Shown here one piece after another: positions 3,528-60,045 of a stretch of DNA of 64,000 nt. The DNA comes from an uncultured Chloroflexia bacterium (GTDB lineage: Bacteria; Chloroflexota; Limnocylindria; QHBO01), in NCBI GenBank assembly GCA_963720505.1, contig CAVRFT010000002.1, forward strand, positions 16,121-80,120, in the 5' to 3' direction. The translations under genes and the position numbers were made by a program. Every line of letters starts with the position of its first letter. Position 1 is the stretch's first letter. Below the pieces are notes generated by a model that did not search any database, was not told where the DNA came from, and saw only the letters and a list, made by a program, of their open reading frames with translations.

Positions 3528-5946
3528 TCAGGCGCCTGAATCGGTTGCATCGTTGCGGACGAGGCCGCGCTCCAACGCGATGGTCACGATCCCGATGCGG
3601 CTGTCGGCCGCCAGCTTGTCCTTGATGTTCGCCACGTGGACGCTTGCCGTCTTTCGGCTGATGAAGAGCTCCTCGCCGATCTCGGCGTTCGAGCGGCCGG
3701 CCACCACCAGCGCCAGCACCTCGCGCTCGCGTGGGGTCAGGTCGAAGGGTGATCTCGGCGCGGCGTCAGGTGCGGCAGTTTCGTGTAGCTCCGCTGTCTG
3801 TATCGCCAGCTCGGCCGCATCCAGTGCCTGCTCGAGGGTTGGAACGCCACCGGGGGTTGGCGCCTTCTCCGGCAGCGGCGGATGTCCACCGAATCGCTGG
3901 CGCACCCAATCCAGGGGGTATGCGAGTGGCGGATCCATGCCATGTAGGACTGCGAGGTGCTCGGCGGTCAGCCATGTCGCACGCGCCTCATCCGCAACTC
4001 CGACCCTGTCGAGCCATGCGGCAACGCTGGCCAGGCTTCCAATCAGGTCCGGCATGGCTCCCGCCTCGCGCGTGATTCGAACCCCCTCGAGCAGCGAGGA
4101 TCGCGAACCCTCGAAGTCGCCGTTCTCCAGCTGGCCAACACTGAGGGGCAACAGCAGGCTGCCAAGGAACGCCCGCTCACCCCACTCACGCGTCAAGCGG
4201 ACGGACTCCTTCCAATATTCCAGCGCGGCGTGACTATTCCCGGAGTCCCACTCGACACCTCCCAGGTGATTCAGGCTGAGGGCGACCCGCTGCAGGTCGC
4301 CAGCCCGCTTGGAGGCGTCGATCGCAGCAAGCAACAAACGGCGTCGATCCGCGAGCCGGCTGCTGTCGACGTGGCTGAGGATCACGGAACGCGCGTACGT
4401 GAGCCGGCCCTCCAGGTCCGCGTAGCCCTTGCTCTCGGGCGATCGCCAACCCTCGTTCGACAGGAGCTGTAGCCAGATCGTCATCACCCAGGTCGGACAA
4501 GGTCGATCCGAGGTGGTAAAGGGTGTCCGCAATGCTGCGCCGGTCGCCAAGCTCTTCAAAGAGTTGGAGCGCCTGCTCCAGTAGATCCCGGCCTCCTGCG
4601 ACATCGCCGCCCACGGCGTCCAGCCAACCGGCCGTCATCAACACCGCGGCGCGCGACGAGGGCGCGGCATCGGCGCTGCCTGTGAGAGCCTCCATGAGCC
4701 AGGTGCGACCCTCGCTGATGCTCCCGTAGTAGCGCCAGTAGGTGCCCATCGGGGCGGCGAGCCGGCACAGTCGCTCTGAATCGCCGCTGTCGGAGAGCCG
4801 GGCGCGAGCGGCACGAATGTTGTCGAGGTCCTGGTTCAACCGTGCCAGCCAACGCGCGTGATCCGGTCCCTGGAGTCGTGACCCGGCGGACTCCGCCAGC
4901 CGAATGCAGAAGTCCGCATGCCGATCCCGAGTCTGGACAACATCGGCCTCCGAAAGCTCGGCCAGCCCAAACTCGCGGATGGTCTCGAGCATCGAGAACC
5001 GCGGCTCACCATCGCTGCCGACGGATGCAATCACCAGGTTGTGATCGACAAGGAGACCAACGGCGTCCAGCAGCAATGCGTCGTCGCTGTGCGAAACAGC
5101 CTGGATGCCCTCGAGGTCGAAGCCGCCGACAAAGACGGCGCAACGGGAGAACAACAAGCGCTCGCCCGCGGGCAGCAGGTCGTAGCTCCACGCGATGGTG
5201 GCGCGGAGGGTGCGTTGGCGGGCCGGCGCATCAGCCGCCCCTCCAGTCAGCAGGGCAAGTCGTGCCCCCAAGCGCGCCAGGATAGCGTCGGGCGAAAGGA
5301 CCTTCAGGCGGGACGCAGCGAGCTCGACCGCAAGCGGCAGTCCGTCGAGCTCACGGCAGATTTCGGCCACAGCGGTGGCGTTTTCGTCCGTCAGCTGGAA
5401 GTCCGGTCGCACCGAGCGCGCCCTCCCAAGGAAGAGCCGCACGGACTCGATATCCTTCAGATTCTCGGCCGATCGGGCGGTTCCACTGGGAGGCGTTGCG
5501 AGTGGCGGGACCGGATACTCCTGCTCCCCCACTAGGTGCAACGGCACGCGGCTCGTGACGACGACACGTAAGGACGGCGTCGCATCGAGCAGCATCCCCA
5601 CCGTCGGGGCAGCGGCGGCAATCTGCTCAAAGTTATCGAGCAACAAGACTGTTTCACGGCGCCCCAATCGCTCGCTGACGACGGTCATTGGATCGATGGC
5701 GCTCGATTCCCGAACTCCCAGTGCTGCGCCGATGGCGGGCAACAGTTGTTTTGGATCTAGAACCGAAGCCAGCTCGACAATGTGGCGCGGTCGCCGGTCT
5801 GAAGGGGTCCCGATCGCCTCCACCGCCAACCGAGTCTTACCGATACCACCGGGGCCGGTCAGCGTGAGCAGCCTGGTCCCCTCCAACAGGCGTCGGACCT
5901 CCGCTATCTCGCGCTCGCGGCCGACGAACGCGCTTCGCCACTCCAC
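3528..5946 (-). CDS. STAND/NB-ARC-like ATPase + TPR + LuxR HTH transcriptional regulator; one frameshift near 4400
   Basis: GPGGIGKT P-loop, LLLDNFE, LDGLPLAVELAA; C-terminal LTPREREVLALVVAGRSNAEIGEELFISRKTASVHVANIKDKL. Confidence 0.9.
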
Positions 5947-5988
5947 GGGCGAAGTCTAAGCGCGGCGATCCGGAACTAAGACGCGAGA

Positions 5989-6045
5989 CTCAGAAATGAG
6001 TCAGGCCCTAAGGCGCGTCCCGATGTGTCCAGCGCGGCTTAGGCC
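5989..6045 (+). promoter_or_regulatory. Putative LuxR-type operator/promoter motif CTCAGAAATGAG...CCTAAGG-N3-GTCCCGATGTG...CTTAGG
   Basis: Inverted CCTAAG (6007) / CTTAGG (6038) half-sites. The same core recurs on the minus strand near 35080-35100 and 35950-35970. Confidence 0.6.
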
Positions 6046-6097
6046 GAGGGTGTGCAGCCAAGGGCAGCAGCCCGAACACAAAGCGGAGGACACGGAC

Positions 6098-6553
6098 ATG
6101 GTTGCATCTCAAGGGACGCTTCAGCGGCCAAGCGCACGACAGGCGAGCGGCTGGGCCGCTCTCGTGGTCGCGGGGTTCATGGTTGGTCTGATCGTCGCCT
6201 ACGCGATTACGCTGGGACCGCTCGCCCAGAAGTCGCCGGCCACCGGAGGGCCTGCGGCACCGAACGACGCCGGCCAAAGCGCATTTGCCGCCTACCAGCA
6301 CACGGTTTCCAACCTGGCTGCCGCCGTCCAGCGCCATGACTGGCAGTCCATTGCGCGCTTCCAGTCACAGCTCGAAGGCCAGATCGGTGCGGAAACGATT
6401 GGGGCGGTCTATGCGGAGCGATCGCGTCTGCTCGGCAACCTGGCCGCCGCCGAACAGCGACACGACGTGCGCATGGCTCTTGCGTTCCGCCAGCAGATAG
6501 ACGACTTGTGCCCGGCAGCGCAGGTCAGCAGCGCGCCGGCGTTCTGCCGATAA
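6098..6553 (+). CDS. Hypothetical single-pass membrane protein
   Basis: GGAGGA SD at 6085, hydrophobic segment, two internal repeats (NLAAAVQRHD / NLAAAEQRHD). Confidence 0.65.
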   Translation: MVASQGTLQRPSARQASGWAALVVAGFMVGLIVAYAITLGPLAQKSPATGGPAAPNDAGQSAFAAYQHTVSNLAAAVQRHDWQSIARFQSQLEGQIGAETIGAVYAERSRLLGNLAAAEQRHDVRMALAFRQQIDDLCPAAQVSSAPAFCR

Positions 6554-29802: not shown

Positions 29803-30228
29803 TGTCTCTCCTTACTCGTTCTGACCGGTAAGCGCGGGTTGGCGTTCTGAATAACCGCAGTCTGCGACGAGCAAAGAAGGATGGCAAGTAAGATTGTTAG
29901 ACCCTGTTGACTGTAGGCACCGTTAGTCTTTCCTACTCGAGGAGCGAACAAGCTGCAGAGCCGCGCATGCTGCGGGCTGCCCGGCCATCCTGGATCGCCG
30001 TAGACTTCGTCGGCCTAGACGGATGCGAACGGCCGGCGCTACTTGGCGGTCCGCCATTTGACGCGCATCTGGCCTTGCTCCTGAGCCGCTTGCTTGCTTG
30101 CATCGGAGTATAGGATTCCGATAACGGGAGGCTGCGATGCGCGAGCGAACCCCATGGTCGCCCTCACTGCCGATCGCTTGCGCTGAGCCACTGGCGAAAC
30201 CGGCCCGTTGCTGGGGAGGACTCGATCC

Positions 30229-30882
30229 ATGCGCCGTGCCCGCGTATCACTGTCACTCGCTGCCTCGGTCATTCTCGTCCTGACCCTGAGCAGCACCACG
30301 CTTGCAGCCCCGCATAAGGCGGCGGTCTACTCGCCCAACGCCCACGTCAACGGCGCGTCCCTGGTGGACCTCGCGGTGGCGTGGAACGATTGGGCCTGGC
30401 AGCCGGCCGATACCAACCCGCTCCTGAATCCTCGCTGCGAGGCGAGCGGGATCGGCAAGATCTGGTTCGCACCCGTCTCGATCGATGTCGCACAGGAGCT
30501 GGACTGCACGCTTCCGCCGGGTGGAAAGCTGCTGATCACCCCCGGTGGCTACGAATGCTCCACTGCGGAGGGCAACGGCGAAACGCTCGCCGAGCTCACC
30601 GAATGCGCCGAGACCAACTTCGCCAACGAGATCTGCTGCGCGCAGGTGATCGTCGATGGCGTGGAGCTCGCGAACCTGGATCCCTACGAGTTCCTGACGC
30701 CTGGCCAGGTGCTGGATGGACCAAACCTCTTCGGAGACGACCCGACGCTGTCGATCGAGCGCGGCTGGTTCATCCTCTTGCGCCCGATGAGCGTCGGCGA
30801 GCACGAGGTCTTCATCTACGACGAGGCCCCGAACTTCGGCCTCGTCTTCAGCACCACCATGCATATCACCGTGGCGCCCTGA
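30229..30882 (+). CDS. Secreted Cys-containing hypothetical protein
   Basis: GGAGG SD, signal peptide, W-x2-W..NP..C..WF..C..P pattern, LLRPMSVGEH. Confidence 0.75.
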   Translation: MRRARVSLSLAASVILVLTLSSTTLAAPHKAAVYSPNAHVNGASLVDLAVAWNDWAWQPADTNPLLNPRCEASGIGKIWFAPVSIDVAQELDCTLPPGGKLLITPGGYECSTAEGNGETLAELTECAETNFANEICCAQVIVDGVELANLDPYEFLTPGQVLDGPNLFGDDPTLSIERGWFILLRPMSVGEHEVFIYDEAPNFGLVFSTTMHITVAP

Positions 30883-30924: not shown

Positions 30925-31401
30925 ATGCGACGCATCGTGGCAATCATCGCGGCGACCTGTGCCCTGGTCGCTCTCGCGTCACCGGTCGCGGCCGCGAAGC
31001 CGGACCGCCACCCGGAAAACCTCGAGGGTTTCGTCCTGACGGGGGCCTGCGAGTTCGACGTCCAGCTCGACATCCTGAGGGACCGCTCGTACGCGATGGA
31101 CTTCTACGACCAGGACGGCAACCTCGTTCGCACGCAGTACTTCGGCAGCATCGTCATCAGGGCCACCAATGTGGAGACCGATGCATCCGTGGACCTGAAC
31201 ATCGGCGGCCCTGCCCGTGATGCCTATAACGCGGACGGCACCATCACGACCACGTTCCTGGGCCTTGGCCTGCCGCTCATAACGGACAACAACCTGACTC
31301 GCGGACGCTTTGAATTCACCTTCAGCGCCGGTTTCGAGGAGCTGTTGAGCGTCGGGAAGTCAGCCGGATTCACGGAGGATTTCTGCGCGCTCATTGACTG
31401 A
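30925..31401 (+). CDS. Secreted beta-rich hypothetical protein
   Basis: GGAGG SD, signal peptide ending VAAA, N- and C-terminal Cys pair. Confidence 0.8.
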   Translation: MRRIVAIIAATCALVALASPVAAAKPDRHPENLEGFVLTGACEFDVQLDILRDRSYAMDFYDQDGNLVRTQYFGSIVIRATNVETDASVDLNIGGPARDAYNADGTITTTFLGLGLPLITDNNLTRGRFEFTFSAGFEELLSVGKSAGFTEDFCALID

Positions 31402-34043: not shown

Positions 34044-35001
34044 TCAGTCGCCGAGCTCGGCCCTCGTGCTGACGTAGATGTCGGCGGTCACGCCGCGCCC
34101 GAAGTACAGGCGCTTTCCGTCTCCGGAGAGCGACGGTCGCGACTCCGGCTCCGCCGTGTTCACCGCCGTCACCGGGACGGGAGTCGACCACAATCCGGTT
34201 GAGCCGTCGAAGGTCGCGGTGAAGATGTCCATGTTCCCGTTGCGACTCGACGCGAACACGATCTCGCTCCCATCGGCGCTCACGTTGGGCATCTGATCCA
34301 CGGCCGCCGAGTTGAGCTCCGTCACGGCCTGGGGCGTTCCGAACCTGCCGTCACTGCCCAGGATGCTTCGGTAGATGTCGTGGTTCCCGGACGTTCCCGT
34401 GCTCGAGAAGTACAGGTACGTCACTCCGCCGATCGTCCTCAGCGACGGTCCGAACTCGCCGCCCGTGAAGTTCGGGCCGCTTCCGTCCGCGACACAGCCG
34501 AGGTTCTGCGGAGCGTCCCACGTCCCGTCGTTGCGCTGCCGTGTGATGTAGATGTCGCCGACGGGCGGCGTCATCCCGGGAGTCGCACCGCAGGCGGTGC
34601 GATCCGAGACGAAGAGCAGCCAGCCACCGCCGAGCGGCGTCGGGCAGAACTCGTTGTCAGCGCTGTTGATGGCCGAGCCGAGGTTCTGCATCGGTCCAAA
34701 GGGGTCGCTCTTCTTCGAGCGGTCGGCCACCCAGACGTCGTTCTTGCCATACCCGCCGGGCCGCGTGGAGGCGATGTACAGCTGCTTGCCGTTGGGCGAC
34801 TCGATGGGGCAGCCTTCGTGAGCGGCCGTGTTCACCTCGGCCACCGCCGTGGGCGCGCCCCACGGGCCGTAGTCCGATGCTTGGGCGGCGAGCCGGCAGG
34901 ACGCCGGCTACCACGAGGAGGATGGCGCCGACGATGGACGTCATGGCGCGCTGTGCTCGGGAGCGTGGCCAGAGGCCCGGGGCCGTGAAGTACGGAGTCA
35001 T
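34044..35001 (-). CDS. Secreted PD40/TolB-like beta-propeller protein; frameshift near 34890
   Basis: Five repeats of type xNT/S..E..P...DG..LYFxSxR; signal peptide; N-terminus MTPYFTAPG. Confidence 0.85.
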
Positions 35002-35246: not shown

Positions 35247-35873
35247 CTAGCAAACGATGTCGCCGGTGGTGTTGCCGTCGCTTGACTGGCGCCACACACC
35301 GCAAGCTCCAGCTTCGAACGTCCCCGCGAACTTGAGGAATTGGAGGGAGTCGAAGCTGGAGAAGTAGTTCCTCGCGTTGAAGGCAGCCCCGAGGCATGTG
35401 CCGTCCTGCTGGCACTGCAGGTCGAAGTCACCGACGAAGCCGCTCGTGGCGAGGTTGGGCGCGAAGGTTCCCTGGATCACGATGACGAGCTCGCCGTACC
35501 ACCGGCCGGTCACTCCGGCGCTGACCGTGCCGGTCCCCGCCGGGCTCACGCCTGCGAAGCTGGTGAACGTGCCGATGTCCTGGCGCTTGAAGCAGTAGGT
35601 ATTCGTCCCGATCTGCCAGATCTGGATCGACTCGCGAGCCGCGTCGAGCGCCCAGACATGCCCGTCATTTCCGACATCGGCGCTGTTGCGGTACGTGCCG
35701 TACGCGTTTACCACCAGGGGGCCGCCTCCGGGACACTGCGCCACAGTGGCTGCCGCGGCGGTCTGGGGCATCGTCGCCAGCACCGCAAACACCACGCCAA
35801 CCACCACGGACTTCATTGCGCGAAGTCCTCGCGGTATCCGCGAGGTGCCCGGGGCCGTGAAGTACGGAGTCAT
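35247..35873 (-). CDS. Secreted Cys-containing hypothetical protein
   Basis: Intact ORF with signal peptide and several Cys residues; N-terminus MTPYFTAPG shared with the 35001 gene. Confidence 0.8.
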   Translation of the reverse strand: MTPYFTAPGTSRIPRGLRAMKSVVVGVVFAVLATMPQTAAAATVAQCPGGGPLVVNAYGTYRNSADVGNDGHVWALDAARESIQIWQIGTNTYCFKRQDIGTFTSFAGVSPAGTGTVSAGVTGRWYGELVIVIQGTFAPNLATSGFVGDFDLQCQQDGTCLGAAFNARNYFSSFDSLQFLKFAGTFEAGACGVWRQSSDGNTTGDIVC

Positions 35874-35998
35874 CTTGCTTCTCCATCTGCTATTGGCGGG
35901 AGTTGCCCGCTTCTCGATGGAGAAGGTGGCCCTAGAGGTGGGCCGGCCGCATCGTCACAGTCCTTAGGCGACGGACGTCGGTTGCCTCATTTTCTGAG
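35847..35998 (-). repeat. About 150-bp direct repeat, copy 2
   Basis: Matches 34975-35128. Confidence 0.95.
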
Positions 35999-36381: not shown

Positions 36382-36634
36382 CTACTTGCGACGTAGGAAA
36401 TAACGAGTCCGCCCCGGTGCCGTCCTCGATGATGGCCACCAGGGGATTTCCGGTCAGCCTCGACCAGGAAGCCAGCCCACTTCGCGCGGTTGGGTCGTCG
36501 GAGACGACCTCGAGCACCTGTCCACTCGGCAGTTGGCGCATCCGGGCCGCGATCATCGGAGTCAACGTCGCGCAGTCCTGCCCGACGAGGTCCATCCGAA
36601 CATCGGCGGCCGGAGCACTCGATGCATCCATCAT
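36382..36634 (-). CDS. TusA/SirA-like sulfurtransferase; appears fused to DsrE only through an indel
   Basis: MDLVGQDC..P..L.SGQVLEVVSDDP..LASWSRLTGN; the shifted frame ends RTRYFLRRK-TAG at 36382. Confidence 0.8.
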
Positions 36635-36790
36635 TCGTTTCTCCGATTCCTCTGCGATGCTGGCGCGAGGGTATGCCGCCGTACCGAGCGCCACGGCAAT
36701 GGGCTGCTCCTTAGTTGCCGGGAGCGGAGTTCCTTAGTCCATCGTGCGTTGGCAGGCAGGATCGCTTGCGCGAGTCCGGATAATCCGCGG

Positions 36791-39700
36791 ATGAACCCGC
36801 GGATCTCGAGCCCCGTGTTCGTCGGGCGCGGCCAGGAGCTTGTGCGCCTGCGCGCGGCTCTCGAAGGCGCCATGTCCGGAACGGTCGGCACCACGCTCAT
36901 CGGCGGCGAAGCCGGCGTCGGCAAGAGCCGCCTGCTCGCGGAGTTCCGCGCCGGCGCCACCTCCGAGGGCCTGCGTGTCCTGGAAGGCGGGTGCGTCGAC
37001 CTGGGAGACGGCGCGCGCCCGTATGACCCCTTCGTGGCCGCCCTCCGCCCGTGGCTGCGATCACTGCCCGCGGAGGACTTCGACCGCATCGTCGGGCCGG
37101 CCCGATCCACCGTCCTCCAGCTGATTCCCGACCTGGGATCTGATGGCGAGGCCGAGGCCGAGGTTCGGGCCACGGCCCCTGCGTCCGCAACGCAGTCAAC
37201 GCTTTACCTCCAGGTGCTTGGCTTGATCGAGCGCATTGCCGCCGATGCCGTCACTGTCATTGCGTTGGAGGACCTGCATTGGTCGGATCGGTCCACCCGC
37301 GACCTGCTGCGCTTCCTGGTACGAAACCTGACCCAGGGTCGCGTGATGCTGATCGGGACGTACCGCACCGATGAGCTGAACGAACGTCATCCGTTCCTGA
37401 CCCTGCTCGCCGAGCTGGGACGGAGCGGGCAGGTGGATCGGTTCGAGCTCGCGCCGTTCACACGGAACGAAGTCCATGACCAGATGGCGGGCATCCTCGG
37501 CCGTCCTCCCGATCGCTCCCTCGTCGCGCAGCTCCACGACCGCGGCGGTGGGAACGCCTTCTTCACGGAGGAGCTCCTCGCCGTCGCGGAGCGGAGCGAG
37601 CAACGCATCGGCCTCACACTTCGCGAGACGCTGCTGGCCAGGGTCGGTGGACTCTCCCCTGCGTCCCGGGATCTCTTGCGCGTGGTCGCCGTGGCCGGTC
37701 AATCCGCACGGCACGACGTCCTGGCAGCGGTGGCGAAGATGCAGCAGGCGGAGCTCGGCGCGACCCTGCGGGAGGCAATCGATCGCCAGCTGCTGCTGGC
37801 CGGCGACGACGAGGTCATGCAGTTCCGCCACGGCCTCCTGCAGGAGGCGGTGTACAACGAGCTTCTGCCCGGTGAGCGGTTGGCGCTGCATGCCGCGGTC
37901 GCGGCAGCCATCGAGGTCCTCAACCCTGATCAGGAGACCGATGCGGCGGTCGCCTCAGAGCTGGCTCACCACTGGTACGAGGCGCGCGATGTGCGCCAGG
38001 CGCTGCCGGCCCTGCTGCGCGCCGGGCGCGCGGCGGAGCGGATGTTCGCCTTCGGGAACGCGTTCGCCCACTTCCACCTGGCGTTGAGCCTGTGGCCGGC
38101 GGGGATGGATTCCGTTGACGGCATGATCGCGCCAGGACCTGAGGATGCGGACGGCCCAGGCGGCTGCCATGACCGGCGCCTACGATCGGGCGATCGCGCT
38201 GGCTATTGGGGCGCTGGACGACGATTCGGCCCTCGAGCCGGACGCCGTGCGCACCGGCGCATTGCTCGAGCGTCTCGCGGTCTATCACCTCGGAGCCGCC
38301 AACCCGGACGCCGTGGAGCCGGTCGCCCGTCGTGCCCTGGAGCTTCTCCCGACCGATCCGCCTTCGGTGGCGCGAGCCCACGTGCTGGGCATCCTGGCGC
38401 ACGGACTGGGGATGCAGGCTCATTTCGACGAGTCCGATCGCTTCGCCCAGGAAGCGCTCGCAACGGCGCGGCAGGTGGGTTCGGCCGAGGCCGAGATCCG
38501 CGCGCTGGGCTGCATCGGCCGCAATGCCGCCGCGGTTGGAGATGCCGCCTCGGGGGTCCGAACCTTGCGCCAGGCGTTGACCCTCGCTCGCTCGGTCGGC
38601 GACTTCTCGGGCGCCGCCGAGATCGCCATCGAGCTGGCTCTCGCACTCCACTGGGCGGGAAAGCTGGAGGAGGCATGCCAGGTGGCCGATGAGGCGATCG
38701 CCGAGAGTGCCCGTTGGGGGACCGAGGGGTTCGGGATCGCGCTGCGGGCGGTCAGGGGTCAATCGGCCTTACTGCTGGGACGATGGCTCGAGGCGGAACA
38801 TTGGATCGACGCCGCAATTGCGGGAGAGTCCCTGGGCTTGCCCGGCGTCATGGCGAGCGGGGCTCGGGGCCTCCTCGATCTCGGTCGGGGCAGCCTGGAC
38901 TCCGCTGAGGGTCATTTCGAGACCGTGCTGCTGATGTGCCAGAACTTCAGTGCGACCGTCTATGGGTGGAACGAGCTGTACGCGAGCATCGCCCTGCTGT
39001 TGATCGCGCGCGGGCAGCCAACCGAGGCGATCGCGTCCGTGCGCGAGAGCCTGGCGCGCTCTGCGCAGCCCGAGCGCGATGTCCACATGCGCGTCTGCCA
39101 CCGCCTGGCGATCCGTGCCGCGGCGGACATCGCCGACGTCGCTCGCCCGCTGGGCGATTCGGCGAAATTGGAGGAGGCGCTGGCCATCGGCCGCGAATTC
39201 GACGCCCTGATCGATCACCACGCGCAGCTCGTGCGCGCATTGCCGGATGGCGGCGACCCGCACCTCGCGCTGGACGTGGCACTCGGCAAGGCCGAGCTGA
39301 GCCGGCTCACCGGTCGCTCGAGCGCCGCCGCGTGGGCCACCGCCGCGGCGGCTGCGGACGAGCTGCAGCATCCCCACGAGGCCGCCTACAGCCGATTCCG
39401 CCAGGCGGAGGCGCTCCTGCTCTCGCGCGGGCCGAGGACCACTGCCCGCGCCGCAGCGCTGGAGGCGCACCGGATAGCGCGTGATCTGGGGGCCACTCCC
39501 CTCCAGGGGGAGGTCGAGCGGCTTGCAGCGCGATCGCGGCTGGACCTTGCGAGCCCGCCCGTCGATTCCGACGGGGATTCCGGCGCTGACGCAGTTCCGG
39601 CGCTGAGCATTCCGCCGCTCAGGCGGTCGGCCGCGCGATCCCGTTCCGTCTGACGCAGCGCGAGCAGGACGTCCTGGAGCGCCTCACCCTGGGCCACACC

Positions 39701-39859
39701 AACCGGGAGATCGCAACTGACCTGTTCATCAGCGAGAAGACGGCCAGCGTGCACGTGTCGAACATCAAGTCGAAGCTGGGAGCGAACGGCCGCGCGGAGA
39801 TCGCCGCGATCGCTGTGCGTCTCCGGCTCGTCCCGGAGCCCATTGAGGAGAGCGAGTAA
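36791..39859 (+). CDS. STAND AAA ATPase + TPR + LuxR HTH regulator (MalT/LAL-like); 2 frameshifts
   Basis: GEAGVGKS, LEDLHWSD, GGNAFFTEE, LTQREQDVL..GHTNREIATDLFISEKTASVHVSNIKSKL. Confidence 0.92.
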
Positions 39860-57793: not shown

Positions 57794-58634
57794 TTACTCA
57801 GGACTGGTGATGGATCGGACCAAGTCGTCGGTGAATGGGTTGAGCTGGTCGAGGACGTTGTCACCCTCGCCCCCATAGCCAGCTCCCCAGGTGGCGACAA
57901 GGATGGTGTCGGTCCCGATCTGCACCTCGTACAGGCGGTGATGCTCACCGGCGGAGAAGCTGATTGCCGGGCTTCCAGGCGGGTTGTCACCCACATAGCA
58001 GTCCGGCCCGAGCTCGATATCCCAGTACCGCACACTCACGTTCGAGTTCGTGAGTTGGCCCATCGGCGAGACGATCAGGCCTTCGCTGCCGGCGATCCAT
58101 TCCTCCACGTTTGGCAGGTCGGATGTGACGTCGGTTGGCTGGCAGAGATCGTTCGGCAGGTCGAGCCCGTCATGGATGGTGATCGCGCCGCCAGTTACCG
58201 GTCGCAAGCGGAACGTGTGGCCGCCAGTCCACATGTCCTCGCTGAGTCCGTGAAGCTCTGGCCGGCGCGGTGAAGGCGAAGGCGTGAGTGAACGTGCCGG
58301 AGTCGTAGGTGACGCCCGCATGGAGAGCGCCGTCGACGACAGGCAGCGCCGTGATGGAAGAGAGCGCCGTGATGGACGGCGATGGCGTCGGCTTATTACC
58401 CGGTGCGAGCCGGCTCGCCATGAAGATGCCCGCGCCGGCGACGACGATCGCAAGGACCGCGGCCGACGCCAGGAGAGTACGCATGATCGGGAACCTCCAC
58501 GGACCAACGGCGGTCCGTTGTCGAAGTCGATGAACATCGTCCGCAATCGCTAGCAACGCGCGATCAGGCAGGACCTCCGGTCCCTCATCGAGGAAGGCCT
58601 GGAGGAGCAGATCGGGATCGCGGGTGGCACTCAT
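57794..58634 (-). CDS. Putative transmembrane anti-sigma factor; frameshift near 58262
   Basis: Overlaps the sigma stop (ATGA); short cytoplasmic N-terminus, one TM, extracellular domain. Confidence 0.7.
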
Positions 58635-59185
58635 GCGGGACGCTCCTTGGAATTGGCGGGCACGCGGGCATCAGCCTCCAGGGCTCCCCGCATGGCCACG
58701 GTTGCGTAGCGAAGCCGGGACTTGGCGGTGCCGAGCGGGATACCAAGGTGATCCGACACCTCGGCGATCGTCAGTCCCAGGTAGTGATGGAAGACGAGGA
58801 CGGCGCGCTGCTCCGGAGAAAGCCTCCGGAAGCCGCGCTCCAGCTGGTCACGGTCGTGAACGGTCAGGGTGGCATCGGGCGTCTGCAAGTCGTCCGGCAC
58901 CATGGACAAGACGTTCGCCGACGCGCGTCGGCGGCGCTTGGCCTCCCCGTAGCAGATGTTCACGAGCGTCCGATGCAGCCACGGCTCAAATCGGTCGTGG
59001 TCACGAAGGGACGGGAGCTCTCGCCAGGCCGTGGTGAGCGCCGTCTGCACGGCGTCCTCGGCCAGCGCGGCGTCGCGAAGGATCCGGTACGCGATCGCCA
59101 TGCACCGATCACCGACCGCCTGGGTCAGGGCGGCGAAGGCTTCTTCGTCACCCTTCTGCGCACGATCGACGAGCGTTGCGAGCAC
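58631..59185 (-). CDS. ECF RNA polymerase sigma factor
   Basis: RAQKGDEEAF, AEDAVQ, FEPWLHR, LSPEQRAVLVFHHYLGL..EV...GTAKSRL. Confidence 0.93.
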   Translation of the reverse strand: MLATLVDRAQKGDEEAFAALTQAVGDRCMAIAYRILRDAALAEDAVQTALTTAWRELPSLRDHDRFEPWLHRTLVNICYGEAKRRRRASANVLSMVPDDLQTPDATLTVHDRDQLERGFRRLSPEQRAVLVFHHYLGLTIAEVSDHLGIPLGTAKSRLRYATVAMRGALEADARVPANSKERPA

Positions 59186-59295: not shown

Positions 59296-60045
59296 TCAGG
59301 TGCCAGTGGGGCAGGTCCATTCGAGCGTGCCGGTCACGTCCCCGTCGGTGCCCAGGATCGCAGCCACCTCGCCGGAGGTGACGGCCAGGCCGGAGAACTG
59401 CACGATCTCGTTGTTGCCGGTCTGCCGGTGCTCGATCGTGGAGGAAGGATCGGAGTCCAGCCACAGCTCGGTGGGCGCGCCGTCCGCCGGCACCAGCGCC
59501 GCGTTCATGTAGATCGACACGACCAGGCCGTCGTCGCGGCTGCCCTCGTCCGGCTGCCATCGGTCGCCGAAGGCGAAGGTCGACGAGACGAACGGGTACG
59601 CCTGCGGTTCCACGCCCGGAATCTCAAGGCGCGTGTTCGGGTCCATGGTCACCTGCAGCTCTTCGCCGCTCGGCACCGTGGAGCAGTCGGCCGGTCCCGT
59701 GGCGACGCCCTGGACCGGTCCGCCCAGGGTGAGCGTCATGGTGCCAGTCGAGACGGTCAATGGCTCGCGGGATGGCCCGATCCACTGGCCCAGCAGAAGG
59801 CCCACGCCAATGGCGAGGCCGATGAAGGCCAGCCGCGTCGTGAGCGTGCGGCGAAAGAGGAAGAGCAGCCCGGCCAACAGAATGGCCGCGATGGCCACCA
59901 GGGTGATGACGATGGCCTCGCTCGGGTGCCACCACAACCAGTCCAGGTAGGCACCGATGGCCGCGGCGGCCAGGCCGACCACCACCAGAACGCCAATGAA
60001 CACGCCTCGTCCGCCCGTTGTCGTGCTGTTCTGAGTCACCGTCAT
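59296..60045 (-). CDS. Hypothetical protein, 3 TM + extracellular domain
   Basis: Intact 249-aa ORF with SD. Confidence 0.7.
   Translation of the reverse strand: MTVTQNSTTTGGRGVFIGVLVVVGLAAAAIGAYLDWLWWHPSEAIVITLVAIAAILLAGLLFLFRRTLTTRLAFIGLAIGVGLLLGQWIGPSREPLTVSTGTMTLTLGGPVQGVATGPADCSTVPSGEELQVTMDPNTRLEIPGVEPQAYPFVSSTFAFGDRWQPDEGSRDDGLVVSIYMNAALVPADGAPTELWLDSDPSSTIEHRQTGNNEIVQFSGLAVTSGEVAAILGTDGDVTGTLEWTCPTGT

Follow-up and report, generated by a model that had tools for sequence, protein, structure and literature searches.

Does an uncultured bacterium of the Chloroflexota class Limnocylindria tie two of its STAND-LuxR regulators to neighboring genes through one shared DNA element, and if so, what kind of element is it? 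The question is raised by a 64,000-nucleotide (nt) stretch of assembly GCA_963720505.1 (contig CAVRFT010000002.1, positions 16,121 to 80,120), referred to at its full length as the window, in which a CCTAAGG-containing motif recurs close to the regulators Reg1 and Reg2. The host genome is a 2.53-Mb, 70% G+C, 71%-complete metagenome-assembled genome (MAG). An earlier note on this DNA took the motif for an operator shared by a small regulon. Comparison across genomes and metagenomes suggests that the motif is probably the upstream half of an activator-dependent sigma-70-type promoter that is used throughout the class.

The shared motif

The 21-nt pattern CCTAAGG-N3-GTCCCGATGTG is found exactly at 6007-6027 (+) and 35098-35078 (-), and with three mismatches at 35968-35948 (-). 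These three matches compare with 0.04 expected, and three or more occurred in 0 of 100 shuffles. Chance is excluded as the origin of the copies, and the claim of a motif at 6007 and 35098 with a variant near 35968 was borne out by both the pattern scan and the shuffles. Each copy is preceded by a box (CTCAGAAATGAG at 5989-6000, CTGAGAAAATGAG at 35127-35115 on the minus strand, and CTCAGAAAATGAG at 35997-35985 on the minus strand) that had been described as CT(C/G)AGAAA(A)TGAG; it is indeed present at all three copies, but only RRAAATGAGG is conserved among homologues, and the palindromic left half is not. The offset from ATGAG to CCTAAG is 11 nt at the first locus and 22 nt at the other two, corresponding to a T-to-T distance from TGAG(T/G) to TAAGG of 12 versus 23. 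The contrast between one and two helical turns is therefore real in the window, but the one-turn spacing occurs only once in 176 genomes of the family. An inverted (C)TTAGG downstream was likewise seen correctly at the three window copies (CTTAGG at 6038-6043, CCTTAGG at 35067-35061 and CTCTAGG at 35937-35931, the latter two on the minus strand), but it is missing in many homologues, including those of genomes G008, G083 and G179 and most group-2 leaders, and so lies outside the element.

Anatomy of the promoter

A single layout is common to about 75 related sites in genomes and metagenomes. Two direct repeats, T(A/G)AGG, are spaced 22-23 nt apart (12 nt at the 6007 copy), with a gap of 17-18 nt (7 nt at the 6007 copy) between the distal repeat and the proximal one, which is TAAGG; the sequence between the repeats is unconstrained, whereas their spacing is fixed at 22-23 nt. 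The proximal repeat is followed by a 9-nt linker ending in CC(G/A), then by a weak -35-like hexamer, ATGYGN, whose place before tusA is taken by a canonical TTGCCG or TTGTCG, and then by a 17/18-nt spacer and the hexamer NAnnnT, often TAnnnT, in which A at position 2 (A2) and T at position 6 (T6) are invariant. Transcription would start about 7 nt beyond this putative -10 hexamer. Read against this layout, the box of the earlier note corresponds to the proximal T(A/G)AGG repeat, the linker and the -35 region, and its upstream box to the distal repeat, as TGAGG within ATGAGG, lying 23 nt upstream from T to T (12 at the 6007 copy). Calling the motif an operator holds insofar as it appears to be a DNA-level control element, but the element is composite, with CCTAAGG carrying the proximal direct repeat, CGATGYG as the -35 region of the predicted promoter and NAnnnT as its -10 region 17/18 nt downstream.

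Several sets of sites carry this conclusion. In main-type leaders NAnnnT falls 17 or 18 nt after ATGnnn in 36/36 distinct sequences, with A2 and T6 invariant and the other four positions varying (CACCTT, CACCCT, CATCGT, GAGTCT, CAGCCT and others), and neighboring offsets gave 0 hits; against background, NAnnnT is expected at one or other of two adjacent offsets with a probability of 0.044. Promoters of tusA show the geometry in 16/16 loci with canonical TTGCCG and TACCCT, as TAAGG-N18-TAAGG-N9-TTG(C/T)nn-N17/18-TA(C/T)nnT followed by a leader of about 35 nt with a GGAG Shine-Dalgarno (SD) sequence. Here the canonical -35 TTG occupies the place of the box ATG, and the canonical -10 stands at the canonical distance. 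A third set, complete in 8/8 loci, belongs to paralogous STAND-LuxR genes of other genera with the recognition helix KTASVH[VL]TNIK: directly after the regulator's stop codon come (C)TAAGG or TGAGG, N17, TAAGG, CGCnT(C/G)CC(G/A), ATG(C/T)Gn, N17/18 and NAnnnT. In all eight, a conserved small gene without an SD opens 6-8 nt after NAnnnT, a position that would fix the hexamer as the -10 of a leaderless transcript. NAnnnT is also found at 17/18 nt in 14/14 sites of a second family of the class, many of them TAGCCT. The 6007 copy (c1; ATGTGT-17-GAGGGT) and a relative in genome G007 (ATGTTA-17-GACGCT) obey the same rule, and neither was used to derive it. All of these sets and both single sites have a sigma-70-type hexamer with A2 and T6 at 17 +/- 1 nt, and only one decayed copy (c5, described below) lacks it. 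A strict sigma-70 scan (TTGACA/TATAAT) returned no hits because the hexamers are weak.

Two opposite-strand "terminators" returned by the same scan correspond to a hairpin, AGGCAAC...GTCGCCT, within the spacer; it is not conserved.

Distribution and linkage to regulators

Collections of genomes and metagenomes, scanned with ATGAGG-N15-20-CCTAAGG-N3-GT-N2-CGATG, yielded about 40 distinct true sites, all on Limnocylindria-type contigs. Across the 176 family genomes, TRAGG-N17/18-TAAGG-N9-WTG gave 33 matches versus 22 in a reversed control, and 31 of the 33 lie within 4 kb of a gene with a Reg2-like helix-turn-helix (HTH), most of them within 150 nt. Of the two unlinked sites, one is a copy on contig C7 of the host genome and one looks like chance. 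The earlier note had proposed a test of this kind, for enrichment near LuxR genes with the KTASVHV helix. Autoregulation is suggested by the second family, where 8/12 sites are followed at 350-400 nt by the start of a Reg2-like gene on the same strand. A relaxed pattern with two mismatches was uninformative, with hits across the family equal to the control. The in silico evidence supports the motif as a DNA-level control element tied to the STAND-LuxR family.

One contig labelled Verrucomicrobiia (L072; DATNBW010000032.1) carries a complete Limnocylindria-type dsrE-leader-target arrangement and is probably mis-binned. At another site (L040; G006:C24:6663, +), CCTAAGGTTGGCGACGATGCG, with one mismatch to the pattern, stands directly before the signal-peptide coding sequence MRRSRGKILRALLAGAIAG...; no distal repeat is seen there, and the site is either a related promoter or merely an SD with a start codon.

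The conserved small protein encoded directly downstream of paralogous STAND-LuxR genes was seen at L169, L173-L176, L178, L182 and L186 (genomes G181, G061, G065, G027, G063, G018, G184 and G185). Its open reading frames (ORFs) encode 62-140 amino acids, several being ended by the edge of the locus sequence, and the protein begins with M(E/D/K)QTCLVIPLQPG or MQEHCVV, contains the motifs RSERRLGI and SM(D/E)P(F/Y)DLWFKR and has no Pfam hit. With no SD and a start codon 6-8 nt after a -10-like hexamer, the gene is probably leaderless.

The regulators Reg1 and Reg2

Reg1 (3528-5946, -), which is divergent from the c1 promoter, combines a STAND domain (AAA_16/AAA_22) with a probable TPR region and a GerE/LuxR domain; Reg2 (36791-39859, +) combines STAND (AAA_16), a probable MalT-like TPR region and GerE/LuxR. 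Both are STAND NTPases by their domain matches (AAA_16 at E=1.9e-28 in Reg2; AAA_22 at 28.0 bits in Reg1, with a cut-off of 27), and in Reg1 AAA_16 (30.7 bits, cut-off 32.6) and nSTAND1 fall just under their cut-offs. TPR_12 reaches 30.7 bits in Reg1, just over the cut-off, and TPR_MalT scores 27.4 bits in Reg2 and 16.9 bits in Reg1 against a cut-off of 45 bits, in proteins that are split by assembly frameshifts. Reg1 appears as 3528-4604 and 4234-5946, with a frameshift between 4234 and 4604, and Reg2 in three frames, 36533-38692, 38145-39653 and about 39590-39859. Because Reg2 orthologues in other genomes are intact, being single ORFs of 1019-1156 amino acids, we take these frameshifts, and that of the PD40 gene described below, as probably assembly errors. 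Orthologues of the PD40 gene are also intact elsewhere, and the window copy is split like Reg1 and Reg2.

A C-terminal GerE/LuxR HTH is present in both proteins (PF00196, 62.8-68.5 bits). The recognition helices, FISRKTASVHVANIK and FISEKTASVHVSNIK, are nearly identical, as had been claimed: among the 13 GerE domains of the genome, FIS.KTASVHV.NIK occurs in Reg1 and Reg2 only, and the other 11 are without the KTASVHV helix. The NTPase halves of the two proteins are alike only around the Walker A motif, which argues that the shared motif is not a by-product of a recent whole-gene duplication. No close orthologue of Reg1 was found in the family, where the best matches reach 45-48% identity, and the loci of its 30 best N-terminal paralogues contain neither a LuxR HTH nor the box.

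Promoters and targets in the host genome

The Reg2 cluster contains three predicted promoters of this layout, all on the minus strand. That of c2 (35119-35053) consists of TGAGG 35119-35115, TAAGG 35096-35092, ATGTGG 35082-35077, an 18-nt spacer and CACCTT 35058-35053. Its leader and target (35052-34044) comprise the hairpin GCGGGCAACGTCCCGC, the SD GGAGAAGG at 35012-35005 and an ATG at 35001 that opens a secreted PD40 beta-propeller protein, frameshift-split in the assembly (34657-35001 and 34044-34844). The c3 promoter (35989-35923) is built in the same manner from TGAGG 35989-35985, TAAGG 35966-35962, ATGCGG 35952-35947, an 18-nt spacer and CACCTT 35928-35923; its leader and target (35922-35247), with an ATG at 35873, encode a 208-amino-acid secreted protein without a Pfam hit, and a terminator-like hairpin follows the gene on its 3' side around 35230-35190. 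The third, overlooked in the earlier note, would drive tusA divergently from Reg2 (36736-36668) and has the same architecture, with TAAGG 36736-36732, TAAGG 36713-36709, TTGCCG 36699-36694 and TACCCT 36673-36668, although its spacer is 20 nt versus 17-18 nt in the other 15 loci. The leader and TusA/DsrE coding region behind it occupy 36667-36005, with the SD GGAG and an ATG near 36634.

TusA and DsrE form one 229-amino-acid ORF in the window (36694-36005, -) and two genes in relatives, parted by a TAG stop and an SD; the boundary in genome G005 (L090, G005:C30) reads ...YLQRK* followed by GGAGGGAAGAGATC ATG. The fusion may be real or another assembly frameshift, and an in-frame TAG/TGA flagged in homologues is most likely this gene boundary.

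Wherever a contig is long enough, the order is Reg2, divergent tusA-dsrE, the element and a secreted protein, either a PD40 propeller or others, and the element with its secreted-protein gene sometimes forms tandem arrays. G005 retains Reg2, tusA-dsrE and the tusA promoter and is missing both the leader and the PD40 gene, which indicates that the leader travels with the downstream target gene. On four metagenome contigs (L112, L114, L119 and L132), two copies of the module stand in tandem 800-960 nt apart with different secreted proteins behind them; on L112 and L114 only about 20-25 nt separate the end of a terminator-like hairpin from the next ATGAGG.

Outside the window, the same genome holds two more copies, C7:274130(-) (c4), which precedes the gene for a small secreted protein, and the decayed C7:272176(-) (c5). 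There is no GerE gene within 24 kb of either. In c5 (L006), ATGAGG-N19-CCTAAGGACCGTGGCGATGCG is kept and CGCCTT replaces CACCTT with loss of the -10 A2; this copy is without a hairpin, SD or recognizable target gene. A generalized pattern run over the window's own genome found no regulon members beyond these known copies. The c2, c3 and c4 copies are clear paralogues in which even the first codons of the genes are alike. The copies near 35-36 kb do contain the motif, but as paralogous duplicates of a promoter-leader-start module they do not provide independent evidence.

The c1 promoter, near Reg1, is more divergent. Its distal repeat, TGAGT at 5997-6001 (+), lies inside the palindrome GACTCAGAAATGAGTC (5986-6001), and its box (6007-6028, +) consists of CC-TAAGG (TAAGG at 6009-6013), the 9-nt linker CGCGTCCCG and the -35-like ATGTGT (6023-6028). 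The predicted -10, GAGGGT at 6046-6051 (+), has A2 and T6 and lies 17 nt after ATGTGT, and the start is predicted at about 6057-6059. The target gene (6085-6553, +), with the SD GGAGGA at 6085-6090 and an ATG at 6098, encodes a 151-amino-acid protein that has an N-terminal hydrophobic anchor and no Pfam hit. The single weak homologue of this gene (G007, 32% identity) is preceded by TGAGG...CCCGATGTTA-17-GACGCT. Scored with a model of the leader, c1 reaches only 16.8 bits, yet the specific blocks are kept, the box is identical at every specified position, and the flank CTCAGAAATGAGT matches CTCAGAAATGAGG of the G179 leader at 12/13 positions. With its repeat distance of 12 nt unique in the family, the 6007 copy would most simply be a main-type promoter minus 11 nt, a change that would keep the helical phase, though this view draws on one case. 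Palindromic operators were also considered, both GGAC-N-GTCC in the box and CTCA-N4-TGAG upstream, and were rejected since neither is conserved among homologues.

A proposed mechanism

On the anatomy above, both T(A/G)AGG repeats would lie on one face of the helix, with their centers near -47 and -70. The NTPase/TPR part of a STAND-LuxR protein would be switched on and the protein would then multimerize, allowing the GerE/LuxR HTH domains of neighboring STAND regulators to bind the phased direct repeats. Candidates for this binding are Reg2 with its paralogues, joined in this genome by Reg1, whose recognition helix is nearly identical. From their position beside a poor -35 they would recruit RNA polymerase in the manner of MalT. 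The motif itself, its geometry, its distribution and its linkage to the regulators are observed; from these we infer the identity of the binding protein, its activating role and the transcription starts. The predicted regulon here would comprise tusA-dsrE, the secreted proteins starting at 35873 and 35001, the small secreted protein on C7 and the membrane-anchored 6098 protein. As the earlier note expected, the predicted targets are secreted or membrane proteins, and the proposal of a small MalT/LAL-like regulon holds in silico to the extent that a shared control element ties both regulators to targets; the anatomy of that element needed correction.

Alternative explanations

Several observations weigh against an activator-dependent promoter. 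The main-type -35-like ATGYGN and -10 CACCYT match the consensus only weakly, homology among many of the 75 sites means that they are not independent events, and the shortened spacing of c1 is a single case. The sequence does not tell which part is contacted, the repeats, the linker or the -35 region. A TAAGG with ATG 9 nt later also resembles a ribosome-binding site with its start codon. Finally, the SD of the main ORF can pair with the segment between -10 position 3 and about +11, with compensatory changes (CCTTCTCC/GGAGAAGG versus CCCTCTCC/GGAGAGGG, G.U intermediates, and an A-U to U-A exchange in L138); such an anti-SD helix can form only in transcripts begun upstream of the predicted start.

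Control at the level of translation would accommodate some of these points. CCTAAGG(A) would be an SD, TAAGGA pairing with the 16S 3' end, and the invariant ATG would open an upstream ORF (uORF2) that controls an SD-masking hairpin, while ATGAGG...TAA would form another, 8-codon upstream ORF (uORF1) ending inside that SD. The SD-to-ATG spacing is ideal, the ATG is invariant in 36 leaders (CCTAAGGA, then ATG 9 nt on), and the anti-SD/SD helix shows compensatory changes; moreover, uORF2 has at most 13 codons in 26/41 leaders, uORF1 always has 8 codons (9 in c5) and is in frame with the TAA, and in G006 a box-like sequence directly precedes a signal-peptide coding sequence. Yet uORF2 ranges from one codon (M-stop) to more than 45, in a varying frame and with no peptide conservation, the codons of uORF1 have no third-position pattern, and no start codon stands behind the distal TAAGG/TGAGG copies. 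The tusA promoters are telling, as the "ATG" there is the TTG of a canonical TTGCCG-17/18-TACCCT promoter, and the gene that starts 45-50 nt beyond the box ATG at the paralogue loci, 6-8 nt after a -10 hexamer, does not consistently share the frame of that ATG. An SD alone also leaves the conserved CC before TAAGG and CC(G/A) before ATG unexplained, and at L112 and L114_2 a promoter upstream of the box would have too little room, given an upstream terminator that ends only about 20-25 nt short of ATGAGG. We therefore regard translational control as unlikely. A leader-peptide attenuator of the erm or cat type was rejected in the same comparison, as the length and frame of uORF2 are not conserved. 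Similarly improbable is a dedicated alternative sigma factor, for which T(G/A)AGG and TAAGG would be the -35 and -10 elements and the start would lie at or near the invariant CGATG, making the linkage to STAND-LuxR genes indirect. In its favor, -35/-10 pairs typically have a fixed spacing of 17-18 nt with free sequence between, the anti-SD would be transcribed from a start near CGATG, which would account for the covarying helix, and the window contains an extracytoplasmic function (ECF) sigma gene at 58631-59185 (-). However, TAAGG(A/C) has no T at the last -10 position, and only 7 nt separate the two elements in c1. At every site a better-placed pair, (A/T)TGnnn-17/18-NAnnnT, follows, canonical in the tusA promoters and placing SD-less start codons 6-8 nt after the hexamer, and the genes syntenic with the sites are those of LuxR regulators, whereas no sigma gene is. 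Compared by eye, the spacings of the sigma-28, sigma-H, ECF and sigma-54 consensus sequences do not fit.

The remaining explanations fare worse still. A structured, riboswitch-like cis-regulatory RNA with the box as a conserved loop closed by a CCTAAGG/CCTTAGG helix could be drawn for the three window copies, where that pairing is possible, and one subgroup has an 11-bp helix between two variable segments, V1 and V2. It is nevertheless very improbable: Rfam 15 gave no match for any copy, whether thresholded by gathering score or by E-value, many homologues have no CCTTAGG, own and foreign V1 x V2 combinations pair about equally well (-11.9 versus -11.6 kcal/mol, median rank 16 of 34), and the segment combinations in L120 and L124 break the helix. 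For the 5' part, helices closing the box or the upstream element were unsupported by RNAalifold, a column covariation scan and the own-versus-foreign duplex test, RNAalifold giving only the SD helix and the terminal hairpin; MAFFT with RNAalifold on the 3' part gave no structure, with two groups misaligned. That the motif has no function and reflects a recent duplication of a promoter-leader module plus chance is hardly credible. Such duplication is evident among c2, c3 and c4, down to their first codons, but c1 has only the functional blocks in common with the other copies, two families have the blocks in non-homologous promoters whose intervening sequence diverges, and c5, the sole copy without a target gene, has lost the -10 A2. 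An activator-dependent promoter remains the reading that we favor.

The anti-SD helix

In every leader the native SD is a better pairing partner than foreign SDs. The helix may silence read-through transcripts, in an IS10-like manner, or transcription may start further upstream, as under a dedicated sigma factor. Combining the helix with the predicted -10 leads to a speculative and rather doubtful idea: the -10/discriminator CACCTTCTCCATC would double as an anti-SD, so that transcripts reading in from tusA-dsrE or from a preceding cassette fold back on GATGGAGAAGG, while transcripts from the cassette's own promoter are translated. If true, each secreted-protein cassette would be a self-insulating, portable promoter-leader-start module and would bring IS10-like fold-back inhibition to ordinary genes. 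Davis, Simons and Kleckner reportedly described such "fold-back inhibition" of read-through transcripts for IS10/Tn10 in 1985. As there, sequence upstream of the native start complements the ribosome-binding site, and only own-promoter transcripts would be translatable. Unlike in IS10/Tn10, fold-back here is hypothetical, a way of bringing the predicted -10 and the covarying anti-SD helix into agreement, and its rationale is weakened by the upstream tusA promoter, which is probably under the same regulator.

Relation to known regulons

The predicted regulon is of the familiar MalT/LAL type, for which repeated boxes at the -35 region are textbook knowledge, and brings no new mechanism or principle. 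As in the MalT regulon, a STAND NTPase regulator with a TPR-like sensor (probable here) and a C-terminal LuxR/GerE HTH goes together with short, asymmetric direct-repeat sites next to or over a poor -35. The MalT box of Escherichia coli and Klebsiella is 5'-GGGGA(T/G)GAGG-3' (PMC7567727). The distal ATGAGG here equals its 3' six bases, and CGATGYGG has GATG.GG in common with it, but the decanucleotide itself is not found, as the distal RRAAATGAGG has ATGAGG only and the proximal repeat is CCTAAGG; the resemblance is partial (6 of 10) and may be coincidental. Further differences are the repeat core T(A/G)AGG with its fixed 22-23-nt phasing, a proximal repeat that ends 9 nt upstream of the -35 and does not overlap it, and targets that are secreted proteins and tusA-dsrE, not maltodextrin genes, in another phylum, Chloroflexota. 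The element is best described as an analogue of the MalT box and not as a MalT box.

The MalT-activated region of Actinoplanes sp. SE50/110 contains a palindrome, TCATCC-5 nt-GGATGA, overlapping the -35; mapped transcription starts served to define it, and transcriptomics after deletion and overexpression confirmed it (PMC7567727). In both systems the block that contains the MalT-like LuxR gene is variable, and its genes, several of which relate to membranes or transport, are poorly annotated; the motif recurs in the -35 region of each transcription unit, and motif and regulator are conserved while gene order varies. Unlike those of Actinoplanes, the repeats here are direct, lie upstream of the -35 and are known from sequence alone. 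SARP-LAL regulators of actinomycetes use heptameric direct repeats (PMC5930380). Large ATP-binding LuxR-family regulators beside their targets and helical-turn-phased direct repeats upstream of the -35 are likewise features of LAL and SARP-LAL systems, but SARP-LAL repeats are read by the SARP (OmpR-type) domain, not the LuxR HTH, and their targets are antibiotic clusters.

Limnocylindria are abundant, uncultured Chloroflexota of soil and freshwater. To our knowledge, no transcription factor binding site or promoter has been characterized in the class, and a literature search on Limnocylindria together with LuxR found nothing. The main value of the element would be as the first promoter/operator grammar for an uncultured class, consisting of phased T(A/G)AGG repeats, a weak -35, a NAnnnT -10 and some leaderless genes, and tied to one expanded STAND-LuxR family. 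Its predicted direct targets across the class are secreted proteins, tusA-dsrE, the conserved small protein and the regulators themselves. Such a grammar could guide MAG annotation and supply parts for heterologous expression, and the regulon would be among the few MalT-like regulons defined outside Proteobacteria and Actinobacteria.

Other features of the window

The ECF-type sigma ORF at 58631-59185 (-), beginning VLATLVDRAQKGDEEAFAALT..., is followed by a probable membrane protein at 59296-60045 and is not syntenic with motif sites. At 30118-30214 (+) there is a c-di-GMP-II-GAG riboswitch aptamer (RF03169, 61.9 bits, E=6.9e-10); the ORF immediately downstream of it (30208-30882) has an N-terminus resembling a signal peptide, as does the next ORF, at 30925-31401.

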